Positions 2,834 through 19,501 of a DNA stretch of 52,385 nucleotides are shown here, piece by piece. Each line of letters starts with the position of its first letter. Position 1 is the stretch's first letter. The stretch is from Candidatus Doudnabacteria bacterium (GTDB lineage Bacteria; Patescibacteriota; Doudnabacteria; UBA920): NCBI GenBank assembly GCA_038203095.1, contig JBBREH010000003.1, positions 1 through 52,385 of the forward strand, given 5' to 3'. The notes under the pieces are model-generated. The model worked only from the letters and a program-made list of their open reading frames with translations. It had not been told where the DNA came from and made no database searches. Made by a program: the position numbers and the translations under genes.

Positions 2834-3100
2834 TTAGTGAATGTTTAATTTGTTGGGGATGGTAACGCCTTGTTTGTTAAGATCTTCTTGGTAACTTTGC
2901 TGTTCGGAATTAAATTTTTTATGCATGTTCGCAAAAATATTGGTTAGGCTGCCGTAGCGGTTGTTGATTTTGACGGAAATAATCCAAATTAAAATCAGTG
3001 CAATGGTAATTAAACCAGCCAGAGTCCAGATTATCTTAAGTTTCACCGCTTGGGGTTTTTGTCTGATGTTGTCTATAAAGTTCATAAAATTTTCTACCAA
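2834..3100 (-). CDS. Small single-pass membrane protein, hypothetical
   Basis: 88 aa, one hydrophobic segment IIWTLAGLITIALILIWIISV, co-oriented with neighbours. Confidence 0.6.
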   Translation of the reverse strand: MVENFMNFIDNIRQKPQAVKLKIIWTLAGLITIALILIWIISVKINNRYGSLTNIFANMHKKFNSEQQSYQEDLNKQGVTIPNKLNIH

Positions 3101-3160
3101 ATACTAAAAATATGAAATTACTCTATCAAAGTTTTAGTAATCTTTAGTATTTAGTAGAGG

Positions 3161-3787
3161 CTACCTCAATGGCTCCAAGATAACTAGCTTTGTCCCCTCT
3201 TCCTGTAATTCCTTTTTTTTGATGGTAAGTTTTTCCATTTCTTCCTTTTTACCACCCATTTCTTTAGTAAATTTTTCCAAACTGTCCAAATCTAAAATTA
3301 AATCTGACATCTTGTAATGGGAAGGGATAACAATCTTCGGTTCAATTTCATTGACCGCTTTGCTTGCCACAGAGGCTGACATTACAGTATTGCCACCAAC
3401 GGGTAAAATTAAAATGTCTATATCTCCCAAGCTTTCCAGTTCATCTTCCTTCATATTAAACTCTTTAATATGGGTAAGGTTTAAAATTTTAATATCCTCA
3501 CTTTCAATTAAAAAAACGGTTACGTAGGCGCCTTCTTGTTTTAATGGCACGCCTGTAACAGTAACGCCTTTAACATCGTATTCGCCGGGATCAGTAATGT
3601 CAAAATGCTCGCCGGAAATTCCGGACATGGCCGAGTAGAGCGTTTTGTCTTTTTGAGCCAAAATTAACACATCGGCTACTCCGCGAGGCGGTGTTAGGCC
3701 GCTGTCCTTATGGAAAGGGTCGGTTATAATTGTGGCTTCTTTGGTGGTGATTTTAAAGGAAGATAAACCGAAATATTGAATTTGCAT
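3161..3787 (-). CDS. Metallo-beta-lactamase-fold protein (Lactamase_B_3-like), metal motifs degenerate
   Basis: MQIQYFGLSSFKI, IITDPF, PGEYDVKGV, DILILPVGG, IVIPSHY. Confidence 0.8.
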   Translation of the reverse strand: MQIQYFGLSSFKITTKEATIITDPFHKDSGLTPPRGVADVLILAQKDKTLYSAMSGISGEHFDITDPGEYDVKGVTVTGVPLKQEGAYVTVFLIESEDIKILNLTHIKEFNMKEDELESLGDIDILILPVGGNTVMSASVASKAVNEIEPKIVIPSHYKMSDLILDLDSLEKFTKEMGGKKEEMEKLTIKKKELQEEGTKLVILEPLR

Positions 3788-3892
3788 ATAAACAAATTAT
3801 AGCGGATTTTAATCAAAAAGGGAAGCCGTTTTAGGCAAAAATCAATTATAAATTGCCAATTAAATAAGCCATTTTCTATTTCTAACTAGGTC

Positions 3893-3921
3893 TTGCCAAA
3901 AGCTCTAAAATCAGCTATGAT
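3893..3921 (+). promoter_or_regulatory. sigma70-type promoter of rpsA
   Basis: TTGCCA-N17-TATGAT about 180 nt upstream of the ATG. Confidence 0.55.
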
Positions 3922-4099
3922 TTTAATGCTTATTTGCGTATGTGTTGCGGAATGAATTTTAATTTTTAATCCCAAATAAGCCTTGAGATTGCAACACTTT
4001 TAACAATTAACCAATGGAATACGTATCTTAAAATTGATTCAACGATTAAGGTCGTTGATTTTTTATTAAATCGTTATTTGGTTACGGAAAAATAATTTT

Positions 4100-5310: not shown

Positions 5311-5350
5311 AAAAAACTCCTTCGCCTTGAACTAAGGCGAAGGAGTTTTT
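5311..5350. terminator. Bidirectional intrinsic terminator
   Basis: aaaaactccttcgcctt-gaact-aaggcgaaggagttttt. Confidence 0.85.
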
Positions 5351-5405
5351 AATTTTCCCTCTTGCCCCTATTGTAGCAAATTTCCGGATATCTGCTAATA
5401 AGTTA

Positions 5406-6164
5406 TTATCCTTCTCCCGGCTTGCCTTCCGAGGACTTCTCCCAAAGCAGTTGGTGGAAGACCGTCATCGTCTGCATAAATTCCTGGCTTTCAATGAGTA
5501 TGCCAAAACTCTCATGTTTAGTGCTAAACAATCCAACCTCACCAGTATCATAAATTCCTATCGCCATGGGTATAGTAATGCCTTTAGGAGCAAATCTTAA
5601 TTGCCGCAGGTATTTTGTGCCCTGGGCTGAATATGGATATGCCACGTCTTTGTCGCGGAAACGGATGGTTTTAATAAACACGCCTTTTTGAATTCTTTGC
5701 CGGTCAATCTCGCCCATAAATTTAGGCCCGCCAATCATATCCAAAATATCCCTACCGGTCCAAATATATAAAGCCTGCCTTTGGCAACGCAATTCTTCCC
5801 GCACTATGTTTTTCACCTGTTCCGGTCTCTCAAAATATTCAATTTTTGGTTTTTTAATCGAAGCATTAAACAGTCCCATAAATTCCGGCAACAACTCTTG
5901 TACCGCTTCCAGGTTTTGTTTTTGTAAATCCAGCAGGCGGGATGGGGGCAGGGCTTTATAATACATACGATTGCGGATTTTAGCCTGTGAAATTAATCCC
6001 TTGTTGACTAGTTGGCCGATAAAATTGTATACGGAAGTTCTTTTAACTTGGGCTTTGTCGGCAATCGGTTTAATTGTGCTTAAGCCCAATTCTAAAATAG
6101 CCATATAGGTTTTGGCTTCTTTCTCGTTTAAACCCAAATTGTTTAAAAATTCTTCTTTTTCCAT
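5406..6164 (-). CDS. TrmB-family transcriptional regulator (paralog 1)
   Basis: LGLNEKEAKTYMAILELG...RTSVYNFIGQLVNKGLI wHTH plus PKIEYFE C-terminal domain. Confidence 0.85.
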   Translation of the reverse strand: MEKEEFLNNLGLNEKEAKTYMAILELGLSTIKPIADKAQVKRTSVYNFIGQLVNKGLISQAKIRNRMYYKALPPSRLLDLQKQNLEAVQELLPEFMGLFNASIKKPKIEYFERPEQVKNIVREELRCQRQALYIWTGRDILDMIGGPKFMGEIDRQRIQKGVFIKTIRFRDKDVAYPYSAQGTKYLRQLRFAPKGITIPMAIGIYDTGEVGLFSTKHESFGILIESQEFMQTMTVFHQLLWEKSSEGKPGEG

Positions 6165-9880: not shown

Positions 9881-10012
9881 GCCCTTTTTGTCATTTTATG
9901 GCTTATTTATAACCAAAAATATTTCTTTAGCTTTATTATAGGCTAAAAAAAGTGTTTTGTTTATGAGGGATTTTTTTGTAAGTTGTGGGAATTTTAACTC
10001 AACAACCAAACA

Positions 10013-10042
10013 AAAAACACCATCTGATGATGATGTTTTTTG
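10013..10042. terminator. Hairpin terminator inferred to be the displaced terminator of tRNA-Gly
   Basis: caaaaaacacatc-tgat-gatgatgttttttg directly abutting TGGAG at 10043. Confidence 0.55.
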
Positions 10043-10099
10043 TGGAGAGGGATAATGACTGGTGATAGAATCTATTGGCAGCCTGCAACGGAAAAGTTT

Positions 10100-10512
10100 T
10101 TAATTGAACCCTGTTGCTGGAGACGGCCAATCTAAATTAGCAAGGGGTTTGCCCCTACCCATTTTGGCTAAAAATCCTCGTAGCTCTTTCTTTTTGTCGG
10201 AAGTCCGAGTCGTGATTGTAAAATACTCAATTCGGATCCGAAATAACGGAGAACCCCAGAATTTGAGGTTAGGCCTAAGAAGTCTTTGGGATGGGTGTTT
10301 ATGGCACCTTGCAACCATTTAGTGGTCAGGTTAAACTTGGGATTTATCATTAGTTCTGCCTGAACCAAAGCTTCTATTTTTTCTAAAAGGAATCTTCCCC
10401 TTTCCGCAGATTCCTTATCTCCTTTCAGTAATATTTGCTCTGTCTCTGCTCCTGATGTCGCCCTAGCAACTTTTTAGAACAAATTAAAGGGGTGTTTACG
10501 ACCTTCTCCCAT
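10100..10512 (-). pseudogene. Possible degraded ORF (in-frame TAA at codon 13, possible frameshift near 10170)
   Basis: ATG 10512 is in frame with ORF 10168-10368 except for TAA at 10476-10474; lies 40 nt downstream of a duplicated promoter. Confidence 0.35.
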
Positions 10513-10551
10513 ATTGTAAAATAATTAATATTTTTTAGATTAATTATATAA

Positions 10552-10589
10552 TACCACCTTTTACCCCCGCCTGCCATCCACTATTGTTT
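10552..10589 (-). repeat. 38-bp direct repeat copy 1 (promoter-like)
   Basis: 37/38 identical to 11168-11205. Confidence 0.85.
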
Positions 10590-10773
10590 GGTTCTAGCGT
10601 CATCTCTTTAAGAGTCAAAAAAATACCTCAAAATAATGAGGTATTTTTGTAACTGTTAACGCTCCTTAGTATGGGACGTTAGAACCTATCTTATGGAAAA
10701 TATTGAACAGAGTGTTATTCCTAACCTAAGTCTAGAAGCTGTTAAGCTGGCATAGCACAGCGGTAGATTTGGC

Positions 10774-11133
10774 TTATTCTTTACTCCCGTCGCTATTTAT
10801 CCACTCCCCGTTAACTTTTTGTCCTTCTGTATTACTTTGGTCTGCTTCCCAGATGTCTCGAAATCGATACTCCTTGTCACCGTCTATGAGGCCTAATTCT
10901 TCCACTTCTTGAACGACTGCTTTAATAGGATGCTCAGATTTAAATTCTTTTACGCTAGTTTGTATATAATGTTGCGCTTTCTGTATCGCTTCTTCAGGGG
11001 TTATGATATACATAGTATCAACATCCATTATATTTCCAGTGCCTTCTACATTATAAGCGTCCCATTGATAATAATGCGTGGGTTTTTCTTTACTTTCCCT
11101 GCCTTCATCTATTGCAGTGATTCTTTCTGCCAT
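10774..11133 (-). CDS. Hypothetical acidic protein (element cargo)
   Basis: 119 aa ORF with its own promoter repeat and terminator hairpin aaaaatacctca..tgaggtattttt at ~10619-10648. Confidence 0.65.
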   Translation of the reverse strand: MAERITAIDEGRESKEKPTHYYQWDAYNVEGTGNIMDVDTMYIITPEEAIQKAQHYIQTSVKEFKSEHPIKAVVQEVEELGLIDGDKEYRFRDIWEADQSNTEGQKVNGEWINSDGSKE

Positions 11134-11167
11134 ATGTTTAAAGTTAATTATTTTATTGCCTTTATTC

Positions 11168-11205
11168 TACCACCTTTTACCCCAGCCTGCCATCCACTAT
11201 TGTTT
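11168..11205 (-). repeat. 38-bp direct repeat copy 2 (promoter-like)
   Basis: 37/38 identical to 10552-10589. Confidence 0.85.
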
Positions 11206-11623
11206 TAGAGAAAACACGGGGTCAAATCTGGACATTGGACATTTAGTTTTTTGACTTTGATGGCTTAGTGCTCTTTAATTTAAGGGGAAATTTTTGCCTT
11301 GCCTTTATCCAAAGAAAAAAGCTCCACCATCCGCCAACTGGCGGAGTGAAACATTTTTCTTTGGAGCGGTTTAAGGGACGATTATAGAACTATGGATTGG
11401 GTGGAGGTGGTGGCAGGTTATGGGTATGTGGCAAAACAGTTGGATAAATTTTTGGTGAGAGCGTAAATATTTACGATTGTTTTTACAAGGCGGGGGTGGG
11501 GTGCTTTTAAGCAGAATTTTTGGTATTAAGATTTTAGGGTCTATATGAGTTAGACCCGTTTTTTAACTTTTATCTTTAAAACTGTTAAACTATGTAAAGC
11601 AAAGTAAATTTTGGAATAAAACA

Positions 11624-12781
11624 ATGAACGAAGTAAGCGAACTTTTAAACACGCATTTTCAAGCATTTAAAGATGAAGCCAGTCCGTATGATTTTTTTCC
11701 GAAATTGGCGGATTATGTTAGATATGTGATTGAAACAGATAAGTTTGCGCCTATACTGGCCGAATTGCGAAAACAACAATCAGAGCAATATCAAAAACTT
11801 GATGATTATTACGATAAGGCAGTTAAGGAATTGGGTGCTTCAAAAGAAAAATTAGTTGAAATTGTAAATAAAAATAATTTGTCTTCGCCAAGTATTACAG
11901 AGGCATTAAAAACAATTGAGGCTCTTAAAAACGGCACAATGCACGTTTCAAACCCACCAAAGGAATTAAGTGATTGTCTTTTTGCCATAGCAAAAAGCAT
12001 TGGCCAGCAGGGCAAGATAGATTTGCTAAAAATTTTTAATAACCCCAAGCCCATTTTCCATAATATTTATGGCGACTTTATTTTTTCTACCACCTTAACG
12101 GATTTTAATAACCACCACGAAATGGTTAAGGAATTGTGGGATATGGAGCAATGGGGAGCGTTATCGCATTTGACCGTATTAGAAGCGGCAATCAGCTTTT
12201 ATGAGCCAATGGAAAATTTACTAATATTACTGCCGAAAGATGGTAAACCTCATTGGCAAAAAGTAGAAGAAGGGGCTGAAAAAATTGGATTGGTTATGGA
12301 GTGGCGAGAAATAAAGAATGAAGCCCAAAATTACCCTCATCAACAAGGGTCAAATAATCATTTTTCGTCAATATTTGCAAAGATAGAAAGTTTTAAGCAA
12401 TGGGCAACAAGACTTCATAATTTCCTATTAAAGGAAGTCGTAAAGCAAAGCAATTTGCCGGACAAAAAATCAAAGGGCAAGATTAAATTATTTTTTTCTG
12501 CCGATGATGGCTTATACAGAGAGAAAAATAATAAAAAAATTAGTTACCCAATTAGAGGCAAAAGGGCAAAGCTGGTAAAATTTTTGAAGAATGGCAAAAT
12601 TAAAGGCAGTGAGCTGGTTTTACAATTAGACCAGCCATTATATTTAGTAAGCAAGGAAATAGAGGAAATTAACACGAATTTTAAAGCCAAATTAGAGTTG
12701 GCTGATGGTTTAATAATTCGCCTAGAAACGGGCGGTTACAAGCTGGATAATACTAAATTTTTAATCCAGTTTTTAGATTAA
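11624..12781 (+). CDS. Hypothetical protein with possible C-terminal winged-helix domain
   Basis: 385 aa ORF; C-terminal RAKLVKFL...VSKEIEEINTNF...ETGGYKL pattern. Confidence 0.7.
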   Translation: MNEVSELLNTHFQAFKDEASPYDFFPKLADYVRYVIETDKFAPILAELRKQQSEQYQKLDDYYDKAVKELGASKEKLVEIVNKNNLSSPSITEALKTIEALKNGTMHVSNPPKELSDCLFAIAKSIGQQGKIDLLKIFNNPKPIFHNIYGDFIFSTTLTDFNNHHEMVKELWDMEQWGALSHLTVLEAAISFYEPMENLLILLPKDGKPHWQKVEEGAEKIGLVMEWREIKNEAQNYPHQQGSNNHFSSIFAKIESFKQWATRLHNFLLKEVVKQSNLPDKKSKGKIKLFFSADDGLYREKNNKKISYPIRGKRAKLVKFLKNGKIKGSELVLQLDQPLYLVSKEIEEINTNFKAKLELADGLIIRLETGGYKLDNTKFLIQFLD

Positions 12782-12935
12782 GGTAGTTTATACTGTTGGT
12801 TGACTTTTAGTTGTTGTTAATAACTTTTTGCATAGCGGCTGTATTAAGCCGTTTTTTGTTTGCTCGCAGTCAACTATTGGGCAATTACAAGTATTTGCCA
12901 ATTTTTTTAAACTTACTTTGTAAGTGGATTTTTTT

Positions 12936-13118
12936 ATGCCCGAATTATCAGAACTGGAGCAAAAAGGTCTGGTTGAAGCCTTTGGGCTAAAGCCAGAGGA
13001 AGTTGCGGACGCAGGATATAACTTGCTTGGTTTTTTTAGTGTCTTATATAAAATTGACCAAAGGCTAAAAAAAGAAGCTCAAGCAAAAGCGGCTGGTGAG
13101 GGGGTTGGTCGTGATTGA
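12936..13118 (+). CDS. Small hypothetical protein coupled to the rep-like gene
   Basis: 60 aa from ATG 12936; stop overlaps the next start. Confidence 0.6.
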   Translation: MPELSELEQKGLVEAFGLKPEEVADAGYNLLGFFSVLYKIDQRLKKEAQAKAAGEGVGRD

Positions 13119-14250
13119 TAGCGCAACCATAATACTTGAGGCAAGCCAATTTAAGGTTTTAGATTATGAGTGTTTTGATGGCAGGGAAAACAAGCAGATA
13201 AATGGCAAGTTTTCTGTAACCACAACTTTTTGTCAAAAGTTTGCGGAAGCCGAGAAAAAGCAGGGCAATTACTTTCCTAGAATTTCTTTGCCAAACAATA
13301 CAGTTAAACGGCCAGATGGCAAAAAAGAGCAGGTAAAAACTTTAGAAATCCAAGCCTCTTTGCCAAAATCTAGGCACGGCACTAATTTATGGGAAGCTGA
13401 TAGCACAGACTTAGAGCCTATTTATTTTCAATGGGTAAACGATTTGGCAAAAATCCATATACAAACTACTACCAACGCCTTGAGCAAGGCGGTATTAAAA
13501 AGGATTGATTTTTCTAAAGTGGTTAGGTTGCCGGATAGTTTAGGTGAAGCGAGGGCGGTATTAAAACTTTTAGCCAATTTTAACTACAAGCCTCATTCAG
13601 ATTTTGCGATTAAACAATTTAATGATAATTCAGAGGGTATGGCCTTAAAGTTTTGGAATACCACGCAGGGATATGTGATTTATGATAAGTTGGGCGAGGT
13701 TATCGCCAATGGCCATACCAAAGCAGAGCAGGGTTTAATTCAAGCATTTAAAGAGGGCAAGCTAAAAAGAAATGTTATAAAATTTGAATTATCTTTGCAA
13801 AGAAAGCCAAGCCTTGAGGCCGTGCTAAGGCGGATTATTAAGACCAAGAGCAAAAATTTTACCTTAAGCGATGTAATGGCCACTAAGGATATAAGCAAAG
13901 CCATTTTATCTGAAACTTTTAACAAGGTTTATGGCCATATCACAATGGCCATTGTTTCCTTAAGCCAGATGAAAGAAAATGAGCTAGAGCAGTATTTATT
14001 GAGTAAAAATTTAGGGTTTAACCGGCACGCTTTACTATCTTATTTGGTGAATATGACTACTAAAATTGGTGTTGCCGCTATGTGGGGACAGATGGAGGAA
14101 AGAATGGGAGGCAGTAGTTATGACAGGTATAAAAAAGAGGTGTCATTGATAATTACAGAATTGGGCGAAATTCCTAATACTTTGCCTAATTTGATACAGT
14201 ATTTGAGATATCAACACCAGAAATTTGAGATTTATAGGCCGGTATGCTAA
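13111..14250 (+). CDS. Putative rolling-circle replication initiator (Rep_trans / phage CRI-like)
   Basis: (V)IDSATI start, YFPRISL, IQASLPK, KRIDF, VIYDK, IKFELSL motifs in the order typical of this family. Confidence 0.55.
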   Translation: MIDSATIILEASQFKVLDYECFDGRENKQINGKFSVTTTFCQKFAEAEKKQGNYFPRISLPNNTVKRPDGKKEQVKTLEIQASLPKSRHGTNLWEADSTDLEPIYFQWVNDLAKIHIQTTTNALSKAVLKRIDFSKVVRLPDSLGEARAVLKLLANFNYKPHSDFAIKQFNDNSEGMALKFWNTTQGYVIYDKLGEVIANGHTKAEQGLIQAFKEGKLKRNVIKFELSLQRKPSLEAVLRRIIKTKSKNFTLSDVMATKDISKAILSETFNKVYGHITMAIVSLSQMKENELEQYLLSKNLGFNRHALLSYLVNMTTKIGVAAMWGQMEERMGGSSYDRYKKEVSLIITELGEIPNTLPNLIQYLRYQHQKFEIYRPVC

Positions 14251-14396
14251 TATGAAGTTGTAAAGCATTGTCAAATGACTTTTTATCCTAACCCAGCATT
14301 ACCCCAATATCACTACTATTTTTTATAATCGGCAAAAGGTTAAAAATATATATTTTAAACTAACGCCAAATACTGGCGATTAAAGAAAGGATTAGT

Positions 14397-14546
14397 ATGC
14401 AAAAACTTATAAAAATTACCTTAAGCGAATATTCGGACGGCGGAAATATGTTAATACAAAAAGAAAATAAAGATGGTTGGAAACTTATAAGTTTTAACAT
14501 TAGGGACTACTCCAATGAGGCATATTTAATTTTTGAAAAAGCCTAA
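14397..14546 (+). CDS. Small 49-aa protein (not in ORF track), loosely DUF4177-like
   Basis: SD GAAAGGA; MQKLIKITLSEYSDGGNMLIQKENKDGWKLISFNIRDYSNEAYLIFEKA*. Confidence 0.45.
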   Translation: MQKLIKITLSEYSDGGNMLIQKENKDGWKLISFNIRDYSNEAYLIFEKA

Positions 14547-14550
14547 ACTT

Positions 14551-14736
14551 ATGAAACAAAAAGAATTTTATTTGGTTGAGGAACTGGCAAATCGCCTTAG
14601 GGTTTCCAATATGACCATCTACCGCTACATTAAGGCAGGCAAAATATCAGCTCATAAAATCGGCAAGGAATTTAGAATTACAGACAAAGAGTTTGATAAA
14701 TTTTTAGATAAAGTTAAAACAAAACAAACTGTATGA
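14551..14736 (+). CDS. Excisionase-family (HTH_17/MerR-like) DNA-binding protein
   Basis: FYLVEELANRLRVSNMTIYRYIKAGKISAHKIGKEFRI. Confidence 0.85.
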   Translation: MKQKEFYLVEELANRLRVSNMTIYRYIKAGKISAHKIGKEFRITDKEFDKFLDKVKTKQTV

Positions 14737-16718
14737 AAGAAATAACAGCGGAAACAAAAAAAATTGATTTGCACGAAACCGTTTCTTTATTGGGCGTTTC
14801 AACGGCAACTGTTAGAAACTGGATTAGACACAATTATTTGACCCCCCAAGAAGATAAGGCATTGCTTTTTGATTATGCCCAAGTCAAAGAGCTACAAGAT
14901 AATATAGCAACTGGCAAAGTAGACAGGTTGAATAAAAGAGCAAACAAAAGGAACTCCCAAAATACTTTTATACCAGAGGAATATGCCGATAATTTAGAAG
15001 TTATCAGCATTGTAGAAAAAATTATTAGTGATTTTAACTCCCAATCATACCAATTAAAACCCACATTATTTACAGTAATTCTTAATCTGTTTAAGGTTAA
15101 AAAATTAGTTGATTATTCAAATTGTTTGAATAGTTTTGATATAAAAAATCCGGTAATAAAAAATGAGTTGGATTGGTGGAAAAAAAATTTAGATGGAGAA
15201 TATGATTTTGAAAAGTATGCAGGTTTGTTAAATATGCCCTTGCCCCCAGTAAGTGATATTTTAGGACTTATTTATCAATCTTTAGCGGCAGAGGGCGACA
15301 AAGCCCAAGCAGGCTCTTACTATACCCCAAAAGCTGTTGTTGACGAAATTATTTCAGATTATGTAAGCCCTCAGTCAGTTATTCTTGACCCTTGTTGCGG
15401 GACAGGGCAATTTTTACTTTCGGCTTCAGAAGTCATTGAAAACCCAGCAAACATTTGGGGTTTTGATATTGATGAGCTTGCAGTTAGAATAGCGAGGGCA
15501 AATCTTTTATTAAAATTTAATACTACCAGCTTTGTGCCAAATGTGTATAGGAAAAATACTTTGACTGAATTAGTTGAGGGCAGTTTATTTTCCGAAATAA
15601 ATACACCAAAATTTGATGTTGTCGCCACTAATCCACCTTGGGGTGTTCATTTGTCAAAAATGGATACAGTCCAGTTACAATCCTTATTTCCTCTAATAAC
15701 CTCTAACGAAACATTTTCTTATTTTATTAAAAGGGGCATTAATTTTTTGAAAGATGGAGGAACTCTTGCTTATATATTGCCGGAAGCTATATTAAATATA
15801 AAAACCCACAAAGATATTAGGGCAATAATTTTAAGGGATACGCATATCAAAAGAATAAAGCATTTAAGCCGTATTTTTAAGAATGTTTTTAGTCCTGTAA
15901 TAAGACTGGATGTTGTAAAAGCAAAACCGCAAGGCCTTGAAGAATTAATTGCTGAAAAAGAAAATTCTAAACATAATGTCAAACAATCAAGATTAGCTGA
16001 AAATCAAGATTTTTTGTTTGATGTATTTAATAATAACGATGATGTAGGTATTTTTGATAAAGTCTACAAACACGCCCACACTACCCTAAAAGATAATGCG
16101 GATTGGGCTTTGGGAATCGTAACAGGAAATAATGCCAAATTTTTATTAAAACAAATTGGGATAGGTGCAGAACCAATTTTAACCGGCAAGGATATTAAGC
16201 GATTTATAACAGCTAACCCAATAAATTTTATAAAGTTTGAGCCTGATAAGTTTCAACAAGTTGCCCCAGATTATAAGTATCGTGCTAAAGAAAAACTTGT
16301 ATATAAGTTTATTTCCAAGTATTTGGTATTTTCTTATGACGACAAACAAACTTTAACATTGAATAGCGCAAATATACTCATACCAAAAATACAAAATTAT
16401 CCTATTAAAACAATACTGGCATTATTTAACTCATCTCTTTACCAGTTTTTATATCAAAAAAAATTTGGTGCTATAAAAATCTTAAGAAATGATTTAGAGC
16501 AACTGCCACTCCCTATTATTACCGAAGCTAAACATTTAGAAATTAAGAACCTGATTGATAAGCTGTTAAAAAGAGATGCGGAAGAGCCGGAAAGGCAGTT
16601 GCCTTATGATGAGTTAGATAAAATTATAATGGACATATTTAAGCTGAACGAACTGGAGCAAGGGCATATTAGAAAGAGTGTAAAATTGTCAGAGAAATCA
16701 TTAAATATCACTAAGTAA
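14733..16718 (+). CDS. N6-adenine DNA methyltransferase (TaqI/Eco57I-like gamma class) with N-terminal HTH
   Basis: GSYYTP, ILDPCCGTGQFL (motif I), NPPW (motif IV), TaqI_C-like C-terminus; N-terminal LLGVSTATVRNWIR HTH. Confidence 0.85.
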   Translation: MKEITAETKKIDLHETVSLLGVSTATVRNWIRHNYLTPQEDKALLFDYAQVKELQDNIATGKVDRLNKRANKRNSQNTFIPEEYADNLEVISIVEKIISDFNSQSYQLKPTLFTVILNLFKVKKLVDYSNCLNSFDIKNPVIKNELDWWKKNLDGEYDFEKYAGLLNMPLPPVSDILGLIYQSLAAEGDKAQAGSYYTPKAVVDEIISDYVSPQSVILDPCCGTGQFLLSASEVIENPANIWGFDIDELAVRIARANLLLKFNTTSFVPNVYRKNTLTELVEGSLFSEINTPKFDVVATNPPWGVHLSKMDTVQLQSLFPLITSNETFSYFIKRGINFLKDGGTLAYILPEAILNIKTHKDIRAIILRDTHIKRIKHLSRIFKNVFSPVIRLDVVKAKPQGLEELIAEKENSKHNVKQSRLAENQDFLFDVFNNNDDVGIFDKVYKHAHTTLKDNADWALGIVTGNNAKFLLKQIGIGAEPILTGKDIKRFITANPINFIKFEPDKFQQVAPDYKYRAKEKLVYKFISKYLVFSYDDKQTLTLNSANILIPKIQNYPIKTILALFNSSLYQFLYQKKFGAIKILRNDLEQLPLPIITEAKHLEIKNLIDKLLKRDAEEPERQLPYDELDKIIMDIFKLNELEQGHIRKSVKLSEKSLNITK

Positions 16719-16719
16719 T

Positions 16720-17460
16720 ATGGACTACCTAAAAGAAAAGCTAAATAAGTTGATTGACGAGTTGTCGGCTGATAAGAAAGAAATTATAAGAACGAGGTTG
16801 TCAAACCTTGTTTCGGTTTACCCATTTAATGAGTATGAGTATATTATTTCCTCATTGATGGGATTTGGAAAAATTACTTTAGATGATTATTACGAAATTA
16901 GAGATGAGTATATCGCCCGAAATATGTATCTTTATATTTTTGAAATTGGCTCGCCAAGAGGTTTTGGTGAACAGTGGGCGCAAGGACACTTAAAAGGGTT
17001 AGTGCCAGACCTTATAAAACCTACAAAAAAGGTAGAAAAAAATTATAAAGGTGATTATGATTTGATACTCCCAAAGGATAATAGATTAATTCGTATTGAG
17101 GTTAAGGCTTCAAGAGCAGTAAATAGCGACAGCCTCGAACCACTTTTTGTTAAAGCACTTTCATTTGAGAGCAAGCATCCATTTTGGATGAATTTTCAAC
17201 AAATAAAACCAGCTCATTGTGATGTTTTTGTTTGGGTAGCTGTTTGGCGAGATATAATCAAGTATTGGGTATTATCTTCAAAAGAAGTTGAAAGTAATAA
17301 GTATTATTCAAAGGGTCAGCATAGAGGTAATGTTGGCGAGGGGCAACTACATATCAGAGAAGATAATATAAAAGATTTTCAAATTTACGAAGTAAAATCT
17401 GATGAATTAAAAGAAGCAATCATCAGAGCATACGAAAGGCAGAAAGGTAGCAAAAAATGA
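16720..17460 (+). CDS. Putative type II restriction endonuclease (PD-(D/E)xK)
   Basis: YDLIL...IRIEVKASR and NFQQIKP motifs; directly after the MTase. Confidence 0.65.
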   Translation: MDYLKEKLNKLIDELSADKKEIIRTRLSNLVSVYPFNEYEYIISSLMGFGKITLDDYYEIRDEYIARNMYLYIFEIGSPRGFGEQWAQGHLKGLVPDLIKPTKKVEKNYKGDYDLILPKDNRLIRIEVKASRAVNSDSLEPLFVKALSFESKHPFWMNFQQIKPAHCDVFVWVAVWRDIIKYWVLSSKEVESNKYYSKGQHRGNVGEGQLHIREDNIKDFQIYEVKSDELKEAIIRAYERQKGSKK

Positions 17461-18956
17461 AAACCGTAATTTATTTAAGGGTGTCATCCAAAAAACAGGA
17501 GCAAGAGGGCTTTTCAATCCCCGCCCAAAGGAAGTTACTTTTGGATTTTGCCAGAGCCAAAGGCTTTAAGGTTGTTAAAGAGTTTGAGGATGATGAAACG
17601 GCCAAAAGCGCAGGCCGTGAGCATTTTGGCTTGATGGTTGATTATATAAAAGCCAATAAAGATGTTGAAGCGGTTTTGGTAGAAAAGACAGACCGCTTAT
17701 ATCGCAACTTTAGAGATTATGTAACGATTGACGAACTTGGAATTTCGGTATTTTTGGTTAAGGAAAATGAGGTATTGGGTAAAAATTCATCTTCACACCA
17801 AAAATTTATACACGGCATAAAAGTTTTAATGGCCAAAAATTATATTGATAACCTTAGAGAGGAAAGTGGCAAAGGCCATTTACAAAAAGCGGAAAGCGGT
17901 ATTTATGCAGGCAGTCGCTTGCCATTAGGTTATAAATTTGGCAAGGATGGCGATAAAATTGTGCCTGTAATTGACGAGGCAAACAAAGACTTACCGCTAA
18001 AAATGTTTGAGTATTATGCTACCGGACTTTATTCTTTGAAAAGCCTTATTAAGCGGATTGTAGATGAGGGGCTTGTGCGGCCGGAGCTAATGCCTAAAAT
18101 TTCAAGGCTAACTAAAATGACTAAAAGCACGGCTCACCGGACTTTAAGAAACCCATTTTATTATGGCGATTTTTACTGGAAAGGCACACTCTACCACGGC
18201 ACACAAAAGCGGCTAATAGAAAAAGATTTGTGGAATAAGGTGCAGGAATTGCTTAACCAGACAGACGGCAAGAATGAGCCTAAGCCTAAATATGGCACTA
18301 AGCCGTTTGCTTTTAAGGGCTTACTGATTTGTGGCGAATGTAGTCGCACTGTAACGGCGGAAAAGGTAGTTAAGAAATCTGGCCTAGAATTTGTTTATTA
18401 CCATTGCACAAAATTTGGCACTAAATGCACACAAAAGGCCGTAAACGAAACGCTGTTAGACGAGCATATAATAAGCTCGCTTGAGGGCTTAGAAATGCCA
18501 CAGGACGCTGTTGATTATGTAGCCGAGGGACTTAAGCAGTCTTTGTATTTGAAGCGTAACACAGAGGATAAAACAAGGGAACAGTTAGAGGCTGAAAAAA
18601 ATAAATTACAAAACCGCCTTAGTGTTTTGTATGAGGATAAACTGGACAGGGTTATTAGCGATGAATTTTATAACCAAAAGTTTAACGAGTATTCGGAAAA
18701 GATAAAAGCCTTAGACACGCTTATAAGCAAATACACTTATGCGGACATTGATTATTACCAATTTGGCGTAAAAACTTTAGAACTCGCTAAAACTGCCGCA
18801 ATACTGTATAAAAACGCACTACCGGATGAAAAGCGAGAACTGCTTAACTTTTTACTTCAGAACTCCACATTAAAATCACAAACACCCCAATTTACTTACG
18901 GAAAACCCTTTGACAGGGTGCGTCAAAGGGCGTTAAGTTCCGATTGGAGCGGCTAA
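17457..18956 (+). CDS. Large serine recombinase (integrase)
   Basis: YLRVSS catalytic Ser, EKTDRLYRN, recombinase domain (RNPFYYG), Zn-ribbon (CGEC...YYHC), coiled coil. Confidence 0.93.
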   Translation: MKTVIYLRVSSKKQEQEGFSIPAQRKLLLDFARAKGFKVVKEFEDDETAKSAGREHFGLMVDYIKANKDVEAVLVEKTDRLYRNFRDYVTIDELGISVFLVKENEVLGKNSSSHQKFIHGIKVLMAKNYIDNLREESGKGHLQKAESGIYAGSRLPLGYKFGKDGDKIVPVIDEANKDLPLKMFEYYATGLYSLKSLIKRIVDEGLVRPELMPKISRLTKMTKSTAHRTLRNPFYYGDFYWKGTLYHGTQKRLIEKDLWNKVQELLNQTDGKNEPKPKYGTKPFAFKGLLICGECSRTVTAEKVVKKSGLEFVYYHCTKFGTKCTQKAVNETLLDEHIISSLEGLEMPQDAVDYVAEGLKQSLYLKRNTEDKTREQLEAEKNKLQNRLSVLYEDKLDRVISDEFYNQKFNEYSEKIKALDTLISKYTYADIDYYQFGVKTLELAKTAAILYKNALPDEKRELLNFLLQNSTLKSQTPQFTYGKPFDRVRQRALSSDWSG

Positions 18957-19018
18957 GGGGAATCGAACCCCTGTCCATACCTTGGCAAGGTATTGTTCTA
19001 CCATTGAACCATAGCCGC
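18945..19018 (-). tRNA. tRNA-Gly(GCC)
   Basis: Anticodon arm atacc-ttGCCaa-ggtat; CCA end overlaps the recombinase 3' end. Confidence 0.95.
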
Positions 19019-19072
19019 AGACTAAAATTATATTAGATTTTTTATTGGGCACGAAGGTTATCGTGCCCAATA

Positions 19073-19370
19073 TGGTGCCGGGCCCCAGAGTCGAACTGGG
19101 CACGCCTGCCTCTTCCAAGGCAAAGTTGGACTATATCATCATCCCGCGTTTTCACGAGGGAGCTGGGCGCTGTTGTAGGATTATTGTTGGAACTCACCTA
19201 CTAGTCTCTACGCCTTTTCCGGGAGCTTATTGTCCGCCGGAACTTGGTTCGGGATTGTTCCTGCCATAGGCGGGAGTTTCCCCCGAGTTCACCCAGTTTT
19301 TCTCAATCCGCCTTACGGCGAATGGCCCCAAAGATTTTAGGGCAGCGCTCTACCGATGAGCTAGCCCGGC
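19073..19370 (-). tRNA. tRNA-Phe(GAA), split (exons 19370-19339 and 19115-19073)
   Basis: Spliced 75-nt product has acceptor GCCGGGC/GCCCGGC, anticodon arm CTGCC-CTGAAGA-GGCAG, T-loop TTCGACT and CCA. Confidence 0.9.
19116..19338 (-). ncRNA. Group I self-splicing intron (IC3-like), 223 nt, no ORF
   Basis: P1 GCCCU/GGGGC with U.G at the 5' splice site, P10 UCUUU/GAAGA, P/Q-like GAACUCGGGGGAAAC and AAUCCCGAACCAAG, R UAGAGACUA, S GAUAUAGUCC, terminal G. Confidence 0.9.
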
Positions 19371-19501
19371 ATAAATTTTTACTGTCCTACTTCGTCAAGG
19401 CTTCGTAGGGCACTTCTTCGCGATATTATTGTGCGGTCAGCATCTTTAGATAAATTGGTTCTGTCCTTGGATGCTTGTACTTCGTAGCCTTTGCGAAGAA
19501 G

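Follow-up and report, generated by a model that had tools for sequence, protein, structure and literature searches.

The window, the whole 52,385-nt stretch of contig JBBREH010000003.1 analysed here, comes from a Candidatus Doudnabacteria bacterium and contains a gene for a large serine recombinase (LSR) that runs into the 3′ end of a tRNA-Gly gene. The open reading frame (ORF) of the recombinase occupies 17457-18956 on the plus strand and contains the Resolvase, Recombinase, and Zn_ribbon_recom domains of Pfam, while an intact tRNA-Gly(GCC) lies at 18945-19018 on the minus strand (ARAGORN; Rfam tRNA, 72.7 bits). The final 12 nt of the ORF, the TAA stop included, are inside the tRNA gene, and its last four codons, TGG AGC GGC TAA, give a protein that ends ...SSDWSG. 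The protein matched the PHROG 95 integrase family (1.4e-68) and PF00239 at residues 4-148 (8e-20), which is the N-terminal resolvase catalytic domain with the serine nucleophile, followed by PF07508 at residues 181-268 (5.9e-10) and the zinc ribbon PF13408 at residues 286-341 (7.5e-08). Its R-V-S motif (YLRVSS) was aligned to the invariant columns R9, V10, and S11 of an 83-sequence alignment, in which the zinc-ribbon residues C282, C285, and C303 show no variation and C311 almost none (numbering of the relative L094). Among GenBank phages there was no close relative of this recombinase, the best match showing 29% identity. The recombinase gene and the tRNA form the right end of what is very probably an intact ~7.6-kb integrative element (11362-18952) in the 3′ end of tRNA-Gly(GCC), placed there by its own LSR, whose gene spans the attachment site attP.

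Boundaries of the element and its attachment sites

The right junction was located where the first-pass annotation of this DNA had placed it, with the recombinase gene entering the minus-strand tRNA-Gly at TGGAG (18945-18949), and both the domains and the targeting observed across the family agree with its proposal that an LSR inserted the element at the 3′ (CCA/acceptor) end of the tRNA. On the left, the boundary had been put at 10048, giving a size of ~8.9 kb. A second junction of the same kind was found at 11308-11369, where a terminator hairpin (-34.8 kcal/mol, z -6.6) is followed by TTGGAGCGG TTTAAGGGACGATTATAGAAC. The 9-mer TTGGAGCGG has two copies only in the window, and TGGAG is frequent, with 43 plus-strand copies and 26 as the complement, and is weak evidence by itself. 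The G+C content was 0.30-0.36 between ~11000 and 17500, versus ~0.40-0.44 in the flanks. The features on which the boundaries are drawn are as follows.

11308-11361, minus strand: native terminator of tRNA-Gly, now displaced (term1) and forming the B arm of attL; matches the empty site of L001
11361-11369, plus strand: attL core TTGGAGCGG, identical to 18944-18952
11362-11400, plus strand: P′ arm, equal to the first 13 tail codons, with TAGAAC at +24 to +29
17457-18956, plus strand: large serine recombinase, integrated short form, 499 aa, with its final WSG and stop read from the antisense strand of the acceptor stem
18944-18952, plus strand: attR core TTGGAGCGG, identical to 11361-11369, within which the exchange point lies
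18945-19018, minus strand: tRNA-Gly(GCC), the target gene

The closest relative of the recombinase (82% identity) was found in a Saccharibacteria metagenome-assembled genome (MAG), L004, and likewise ends in tRNA-Gly. Besides the recombinase and a helix-turn-helix (HTH) gene of the HTH_17 type, L004 shares with the window one 99-bp patch, in which L004 5527-5625 corresponds to window 11355-11453 with 85% identity. The same left end was found in nine related elements (window, L004, L108, L112/L113, L115, L116, L117, L005, and L006), of which L005 and L006 are tRNA-Asp elements, and also in one variant contig of sequencing run X4; among its carriers are two contigs of JGI metagenomes, two MAGs of Doudnabacteria, and one of Patescibacteria. 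The consensus of the tRNA-Gly elements is TGG(A/G)GCGG.YTAAGGGACGATTATAGAAC, and the left end shared by the nine elements and the X4 variant consists of TGG..GCGG.YTAAGGGACGATT(A/T)TAGAAC plus the tail ORF described below. To the left of TGG the sequence is unrelated in every element, being a different host terminator each time (in L108 with IF2-RbfA-DHH genes as neighbours), and the right side is conserved. This indicates that the element starts at 11362 and measures ~7.6 kb (11362-18952), and that neither the boundary at 10048 nor the ~8.9-kb size can be kept.

The element was present in runs X1 (probably the source sample), X2, and X4, all from one sediment study, with attR and attL as in the window. 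The variant in run X4 is a 533-nt contig matching window 11353-11401, which carries a third version of attL with the host terminator ...GCACAGACAAGCTGATGT and a tail reading ..WAEVLGDYGYT... The occurrence of such attL variants within one sediment study shows that the community contains several related elements side by side.

Exact matches to the tRNA in the species-representative genomes were found in the Saccharibacteria MAGs L001 and L003 and in one other MAG, and in all three the tRNA is directly trailed by a terminator of the A-run/hairpin/T-run type. The empty site of L001, ...GTGAAGCATTTTTCTT|TGGAGCGGCTAAGGGG, is the same, but for one mismatch, as window 11346-11361 joined to the sequence starting at 18945. 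When attB was rebuilt for a left end at 11362 and compared with this empty site, identity extended over the final 14 nt on the side of the terminator and over all of the tRNA sequence compared. Further into the terminator, term1 and its L001 counterpart share CCAAAGAAAAAAGCTCCACCAT (22 nt identical) and, after a loop insertion, GTGAA.CATTTTTCTT with 14/15 positions matching. The two terminators are thus homologous, and joining 11361 to 18945 reproduces the L001 site. As in the Islander definition of a tRNA island, one end has an intact tRNA-Gly (18945-19018) and the other a displaced piece of this gene, TGGAGCGG with a degenerate continuation, at 11362-11378. The earlier statement that there is no long att duplication is right only roughly, since the two junctions have 9 identical bp in common, along with a degenerate resemblance over 17 nt.

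The identity shared between attL and attR was 9 nt in the window, 8 in L004, 10 in L108, and 4 (GCGG) in L005, which brackets the exchange to the acceptor-stem part of TGGAGCGG, TGGAG included, in agreement with an exchange point in or beside TGGAG 18945-18949 as proposed before. Strand exchange very probably took place within the 8-9 bp (T)TGGAGCGG common to both junctions; attR is composed of the recombinase 3′ end and the tRNA, and attL of the original tRNA terminator (11308-11361) and the conserved left arm. The predicted circle junction attP is ...GTTCCGATTGGAGCGGTTTAAGGGACG..., and the predicted restored attB is ...CATTTTTCTTTGGAGCGGCTAAGGGG..., i.e., terminator(11308-11361)|TGGAGCGGCTAAGG. 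A search of the window for an inverted extra copy of attP gave none. An attempt to assign the exchange dinucleotide from dyad symmetry was given up: an AGTTC/GAACT pairing points to a centre near +10, but an exchange no further in than +8 is indicated by the shared identity and by the variation at +9/+10, which is synonymous, and only the bracket was retained.

The first 39 nt after TGG are nearly invariant, with 4 variable sites over 7 elements. An (A)GGGA motif of the recombinase-domain (RD) type is located at +14 to +17 in both the P′ arm and the tRNA (B′) arm, and TAGAAC at +24 to +29 in P′ corresponds to TCGAAC at +19 to +24 in the tRNA. This 5-bp outward shift of the zinc-ribbon-domain (ZD) motif was also seen in L005 and L033, and for the LI integrase the ZD motif was reported to lie 5 bp further out in attP than in attB (PMC3783163).

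The integrase gene across attP, its tail, and the embedded hairpin

The frame that starts at 11362, continuous with the integrase frame at attR, reads WSGLRDDYRTMDWVEVVAGYGYVAKQLDKFLVRA*. Its residues after WSG make up a 31-aa tail, coded by 11371-11463 with the stop at 11464-11466.

11362-11466, plus strand: tail reading frame WSGLRDDYRTMDWVEVVAGYGYVAKQLDKFLVRA*, kept in nine elements (E-values of the tail hidden Markov model (HMM), 1e-18 to 1e-25)

All nine elements carry the tail, and six of them have its stop at codon 35. The frame was continuous with that of the integrase in every case examined (window, L004, L108, and L005), and at attL it has no preceding start codon. In the tRNA-Gly elements, a one-base difference from the tRNA (CGG-T-CTAAGG) abolishes the in-frame TAA, and the variants GGT TTA, GGT CTA, and GGC TTA at +9/+10 are all synonymous. 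Because the 39-nt stretch is near-invariant as DNA and lies in the tail frame, it appears to double as the P′ arm and as coding sequence. From codon 14 onward, the variable sites per codon position numbered 16/10/20, and the pairwise codon differences of the tail comprised 152 synonymous and 182 non-synonymous ones (45% synonymous). The conserved stop, the greatest variability at third positions, this synonymous share, and the synonymous variants at +9/+10 mark the tail as coding sequence.

Both forms of the gene are seen in distant relatives. The IMG/VR contigs L094 and L095 have near-identical integrase 3′ coding regions up to ...AATCTGG, beyond which a 38-residue tail follows in L094 and a tRNA in L095; L102/L093 and L097/L090 diverge into tail or tRNA in the same manner, with a few additional shared bases past CTGG. 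A truncated integrase-tail fusion in L029 constitutes an attP-like joint. The gene thus shows a tail in nine elements and, among relatives, long ORFs in free-form contigs against read-through into the tRNA in the integrated state. For the window we infer the same arrangement: the free circle would encode a 530-aa recombinase with the conserved 31-residue tail, and the chromosome a 499-aa one whose terminal WSG comes from the antisense strand of the tRNA.

Alternatively, the integrase may always be short, the conserved stretch after attL being a DNA recognition arm, a promoter, an origin, or a separate small gene. Consistent with this, its first 39 nt are constrained as DNA, the short form retains all of the Pfam domains, and close database proteins include no long form. 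Such an explanation is nevertheless quite improbable, as it does not account for the frame continuity in the four elements above, the one-base change that removes the TAA from the tRNA-Gly elements, the conserved stop with codon-like substitutions beyond the arm, or the contiguous long ORFs of the free-form contigs and the L029 tandem, and a small gene would find no start codon at attL. Several observations nonetheless tell against our reconstruction. The first 13 tail codons are constrained as an att arm, and only ~21 codons inform on selection at the protein level; the evidence for free forms comes from relatives with only 38-40% identity; the six closest database relatives are all 472-501 aa and include no long-form protein; and the P arm has no clear ZD motif mirroring that of P′, with the centre of the site not fixed.

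An ORF related to the integrase also crosses TGG into a tail (..VWLKFIKSYRTF..) in a Lacipirellulaceae contig (L079, 7747-9372), with no tRNA nearby. It is an unsplit attP-like copy in a genomic contig, but was left out of the model because of an internal stop in the gene. A C-terminal degradation tag was considered for the tail on the grounds that several distant tails end in -AA or -VA, and was dropped because the nine close tails end in RA, KA, HR, KV, PF, KA, GR, MR, and IT.

An AlphaFold2 model was constructed for the natural long form L094, which is ~37-38% identical to the window protein, from the 83-sequence alignment (mean pLDDT 86.5). It exhibited the expected domains and a long coiled coil (helices 336-383 and 389-440), and a low-confidence linker (486-488) was located just past the point where L094 and L095 diverge, followed by helices 491-503 and 505-516. 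In this model the tail looks like a small add-on module that is not part of the core fold, and the short form is probably still an active enzyme. A further idea, which we consider doubtful at present, is that the tail swap acts as a state switch of the integrase. The two-helix module of the 530-aa circle form would be needed for attP × attB recombination, or would restrict the enzyme to it, and the 499-aa form, with or without the HTH_17 protein, would perform attL × attR recombination or be blocked from it, tRNA genes being near-universal landing sites for this LSR clade. If such a switch were true, directionality would be encoded partly in the DNA rearrangement itself.

The first-pass annotation had also described the tRNA as separated from its terminator. 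This is physically so for 11308-11361, but the element appears to supply a substitute in the 3′ end of the integrase gene, where a hairpin with a U tract is found on the strand of the tRNA, starting 13 nt past its CCA end.

18900-18930, minus strand: candidate replacement tRNA terminator inside the integrase coding sequence (stem CCCTTTGAC...GTCAAAGGG, then UUUUCC; 11-pair stem, z -3.8)

Such an embedded hairpin was detected in 11/12 close relatives, mostly 11-14 nt after the tRNA, and in 17/60 distant ones. The stem falls within the codons for the conserved ...KPFD...QRA... segment of the integrase, and its sequence varies among elements with compensatory changes, e.g., from GAC/GTC to GAT/ATC. 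The antisense hairpin and U tract of the recombinase 3′ end may thereby replace the displaced tRNA terminator, in which case an element of this kind can be tightly fitted to its target gene.

Outer site at 10043, cargo, and mobility

As noted in the first-pass annotation, TGGAG at 10043-10047 directly follows a T-tailed hairpin. The features of this outer site and of the spacer between it and the element are as follows.

10009-10042, minus strand: outer tRNA-type terminator hairpin (term0), a 15-pair stem with a U tail (-18.2 kcal/mol, z -5.2)
10043-10135, plus strand: putative older attL scar, made up of TGGAG, a degenerate P′-like arm, and a tail-like frame WRGIMTGDRIYWQPATEKFLIEPCCWRRPI* (position-by-position comparison with the family arm)
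10048-11307, no strand: 1.26-kb spacer outside the intact element, with an orphan 119-aa ORF (10774-11133, minus strand) and a 61-nt direct repeat (no Pfam, PHROG, or PADLOC match)

The hairpin term0 has a homologue in a 221-nt contig of run X4, where it stands right after a tRNA-Gly that is not interrupted (...AAAACACCAACTAAAGTTGATGTTTTTTGT|TGGAGCGGC...). This contig is the source of the joint between 10043 and 18944, and it belongs to another strain, as judged from one extra T, a different loop, and only ~35 alignable nt. The attB proposed earlier for this site has a near match, with the extra T, in a different strain, but is absent from the species-representative genomes even with 0 or 1 extra base allowed. 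To the right of TGGAG, 19/29 of the first positions match the P′ arm of the family (hand comparison), ATAGAA occurs at the family offset (+23 to +28 from the T of TGG), and joining at 10043 opens a 30-codon frame, while the tail HMM gave no significant hit. On this basis we somewhat favour the explanation that a related element once inserted at 10043 and left this site as its scar. A native-type terminator (11308-11361), and not the 3′ end of an old integrase gene, lies between this scar and the present attL, which a simple tandem insertion does not explain and which also counts against our reconstruction.

The 10043 site can be explained in two other ways. The first takes 10048-18949 as a single 8.9-kb element with a 5-bp TGGAG core, its original terminator being 10009-10042 and the junction at 11362 an internal relic. 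It draws on the position of TGGAG after a tRNA-type terminator, on the X4 contig that joins a homologous terminator straight to tRNA-Gly, and on the 30-codon open frame. We regard it as highly improbable, however: the X4 contig is from another strain; the sequence right of 10047 is degenerate and silent to the tail HMM, whereas the arm at 11362 is near-invariant in 7 elements; 11308-11361 is a B-type arm identical to the empty site, which an internal relic leaves unexplained; and the predicted attB is in no species-representative genome. The second takes TGGAG beside the hairpin as a coincidence, the hairpin ending the minus-strand genes of the spacer and 10048-11307 being ordinary chromosome. 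TGGAG is indeed common (69 copies over both strands), and the hairpin stands where a terminator of the minus-strand ORFs at 10425-11133 is expected; but the hairpin is homologous to the one after tRNA-Gly in X4 (~27/31 positions, hand alignment), and ATAGAA falls exactly at the family offset from TGG, which leaves a coincidence unlikely. Boundaries drawn by the logic of a terminator plus a short core can thus be off by one whole earlier insertion.

Fragments of earlier insertions were also seen in relatives. A second 3′-end fragment of tRNA-Gly with 20 identical nt and its own terminator is located at 5317-5345 of L004, 216 nt upstream of attL, and is followed by ~150 nt of G+C-rich sequence (5345-5500) with GTTCGATTCCCC on the opposite strand; no Rfam family was detected in L004 5100-5550 at the gathering score. 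Stacked insertions were observed in an Omnitrophota contig (L012), which has two tail copies (LPLYD[TA]FRNWLMTGEAE...) at 3598 and 5490, 1.9 kb apart, and in the Pyrinomonadaceae contig L029, where the tail of the next element is joined in frame to an older integrase truncated at its N-terminus (2951-3930).

For the 119-aa spacer protein, no relative was found among 5.8 billion proteins, and the spacer showed no DNA or translated match to any fetched locus, save the 22-nt L001 match of the adjoining terminator. Its 61-nt direct repeat (10529-10589 and 11145-11205, 82% identical) extends over the 5′ ends and upstream of the minus-strand orphan ORFs 10425-10577 and 10774-11133, which suggests a duplicated promoter or leader.

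Within the element, five genes precede the recombinase on the same strand.

11624-12781, plus strand: cargo protein, 385 aa (no Pfam, PHROG, PADLOC, or NCBIfam match; absent from L004, L108, and L110)
13096-14250, plus strand: candidate rolling-circle replication initiator, 384 aa (Pfam Phage_CRI 2.9e-05, 24.3 bits against a cutoff of 21.7)
14533-14736, plus strand: HTH_17/excisionase-family protein, candidate directionality factor or regulator (Pfam HTH_17 2.3e-12; TIGR01764 "excise" 5e-14; PHROG excisionase families)
14733-16718, plus strand: type II N6-adenine DNA methyltransferase with an N-terminal HTH (PADLOC MTase_II 1.3e-125; Pfam N6_Mtase, Eco57I, and TaqI_C)
16720-17460, plus strand: type II restriction endonuclease (PADLOC REase_II 3.7e-74)

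The cargo consists of the 385-aa protein and a type II restriction-modification pair, whose predicted methyltransferase and endonuclease genes abut, and the core of the candidate rolling-circle initiator, the HTH protein, and the recombinase. The match of 13096-14250 to Phage_CRI is weak and without PHROG or NCBIfam support, and no Zot-like or coat gene was recognised in the element. A Phage_CRI gene of equal size was found in L110, and a 377-aa gene at the same position in L108. The HTH_17 gene is kept upstream of the integrase in L004 (80% nucleotide identity), L108, and L110. The first ~65 residues of the methyltransferase (14733-14930) form an HTH like those of MerR and excisionases, with matches to PHROG 66 and 2474 at residues 9-65; since this directly follows the HTH_17 gene, two related HTH modules stand in a row.

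The cargo is wholly different between the window, L004, L108, and L110, and the window has kept the integrase ORF, the two att arms, and the tail frame intact. This combination makes recent mobility of the element family likely. Against it and against the reconstruction as a whole, a junction search of runs X1, X2, and X4, which examined joints and loose ends on window stretches in assembled contigs only (where rare variants are dropped), found no same-strain attB or attP, excision, or circle joint. A metagenome scan with the P-arm pattern also gave no match. An opposite explanation is that the element is a fixed, immobile relic, inherited vertically with the tRNA-Gly locus. In its favour, the assembled contigs contain no excision products, and the same tRNA-Gly is occupied by a related element in L004, another species with ~70% flank identity, where the left-flank gene of the window has a homologue, also on the left. 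We consider a relic improbable, however, in view of the differing cargo, the intact integrase, att arms, and tail frame, the different left flanks (IF2-RbfA-DHH in L108, others in Doudnabacteria), and the empty sites in L001 and L003.

A family of tRNA-targeting serine integrases and its known counterparts

Relatives of the recombinase were collected by tblastn from the species-representative genomes, which gave 558 confirmed relatives from Patescibacteria, Omnitrophota, Acidobacteriota, Planctomycetota, Alpha- and Gammaproteobacteria, and other groups. Eighty loci were fetched for tRNA counts. A convergent tRNA was located no more than 200 nt from where the integrase match ends in 64/80 loci, and in 63 of those 64 the integrase ORF reads into the tRNA, with the CCA complement serving as an in-frame Trp codon in 53. 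Nine target specificities were represented among the 64 loci (Asn 25, Gln 20, Asp 6, Glu 4, Ser 3, Pro 3, Gly 1, His 1, and Cys 1), while 7 of the 16 loci without a convergent tRNA end at a contig edge. Odd C-termini of integrases such as ...WLPGxDSNQ were recognised as the T arm of a tRNA read backwards, which explains such peptides in integrase annotation. The element hence falls within a large and so far little-described clade in which serine integrases target tRNA genes and integration cuts the integrase gene itself. The existence of this clade contradicts an older statement, by which tRNA genes are used by tyrosine integrases alone (PMC4383910).

The phage-type LSRs (the LI integrase of Listeria A118, phiC31, Bxb1, and SprA of SPbeta) resemble the present family in their resolvase, recombinase, and zinc-ribbon domains, their short att sites, and a coiled coil (here in the L094 model), as well as in the inner motif shared by P′ and B′ and the ZD-type motif shifted by 5 bp (PMC3783163). 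They differ from it in that the target here is a tRNA 3′ end, the ORF would extend across attP such that the last 31 residues are swapped, and an antisense terminator may be embedded in the gene. LSR-bearing elements or phages at tRNA genes were likewise described for the tycheposons of Prochlorococcus, in which LSRs at tRNA genes account for 27/937 elements (bioRxiv 10.1101/2020.12.28.424599), and for the Paracoccus phage vB_PamS_Pami6, which has an LSR at tRNA-Met (PMC6536676); in the parts of these two reports that we consulted, an ORF across attP, a tail, or an embedded terminator is not described. A literature search, which most subscription journals lay outside and whose silence is not proof of absence, yielded no report in which a serine integrase gene spans its own attP, and none that describes the tail or the embedded terminator.

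The serine family provides the only recombinase in the element, unlike the tyrosine integrases of the Islander definition and of the Mx8 and SSV type. Islander-type tRNA islands are similar in their insertion into the 3′ part of a tRNA, the restoration of the tRNA by the element, the displaced fragment at the far end, and stacking; they differ in using tyrosine integrases, and the displaced fragment is here just 8-9 identical bp. A comparable logic of attP within a gene operates in the integration-dependent immunity of mycobacteriophages (BPs, Brujita, and others), in which attP lies within the repressor gene and integration by a tyrosine integrase shortens its product, whereas here the serine recombinase itself is split. 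The Myxococcus phage Mx8 reportedly integrates at a tRNA-Asp gene. With its IntP/IntX and with the fusellovirus SSV, the present family shares attP inside the integrase gene, a tRNA target, and an integrase that integration alters (Mx8) or splits (SSV). These are unrelated tyrosine recombinases, which act through a Holliday junction with a longer identity segment, whereas the enzyme here is a serine recombinase; they were described to "extend across attP" (PMC4383910).

For the insertion of large DNA into genomes, serine integrases are the principal tools, and how their direction is controlled is an active structural question. The clade offers integrases whose attB pre-exists in many organisms, together with a natural experiment in which one enzyme would occur in two forms set by its integration state.

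Next to the target tRNA, a group I intron (Rfam RF00028, 67.3 bits, E 1.3e-15) was detected at 19106-19348 on the minus strand, between tRNA-Gly and tRNA-Val and within an apparent tRNA-Phe(GAA) at 19064-19420. The tRNA-Phe is uninterrupted at the matching place in L003 and L004, and a low-depth contig of run X1 skips 19116-19338 (223 nt), which may represent an intron-less variant.

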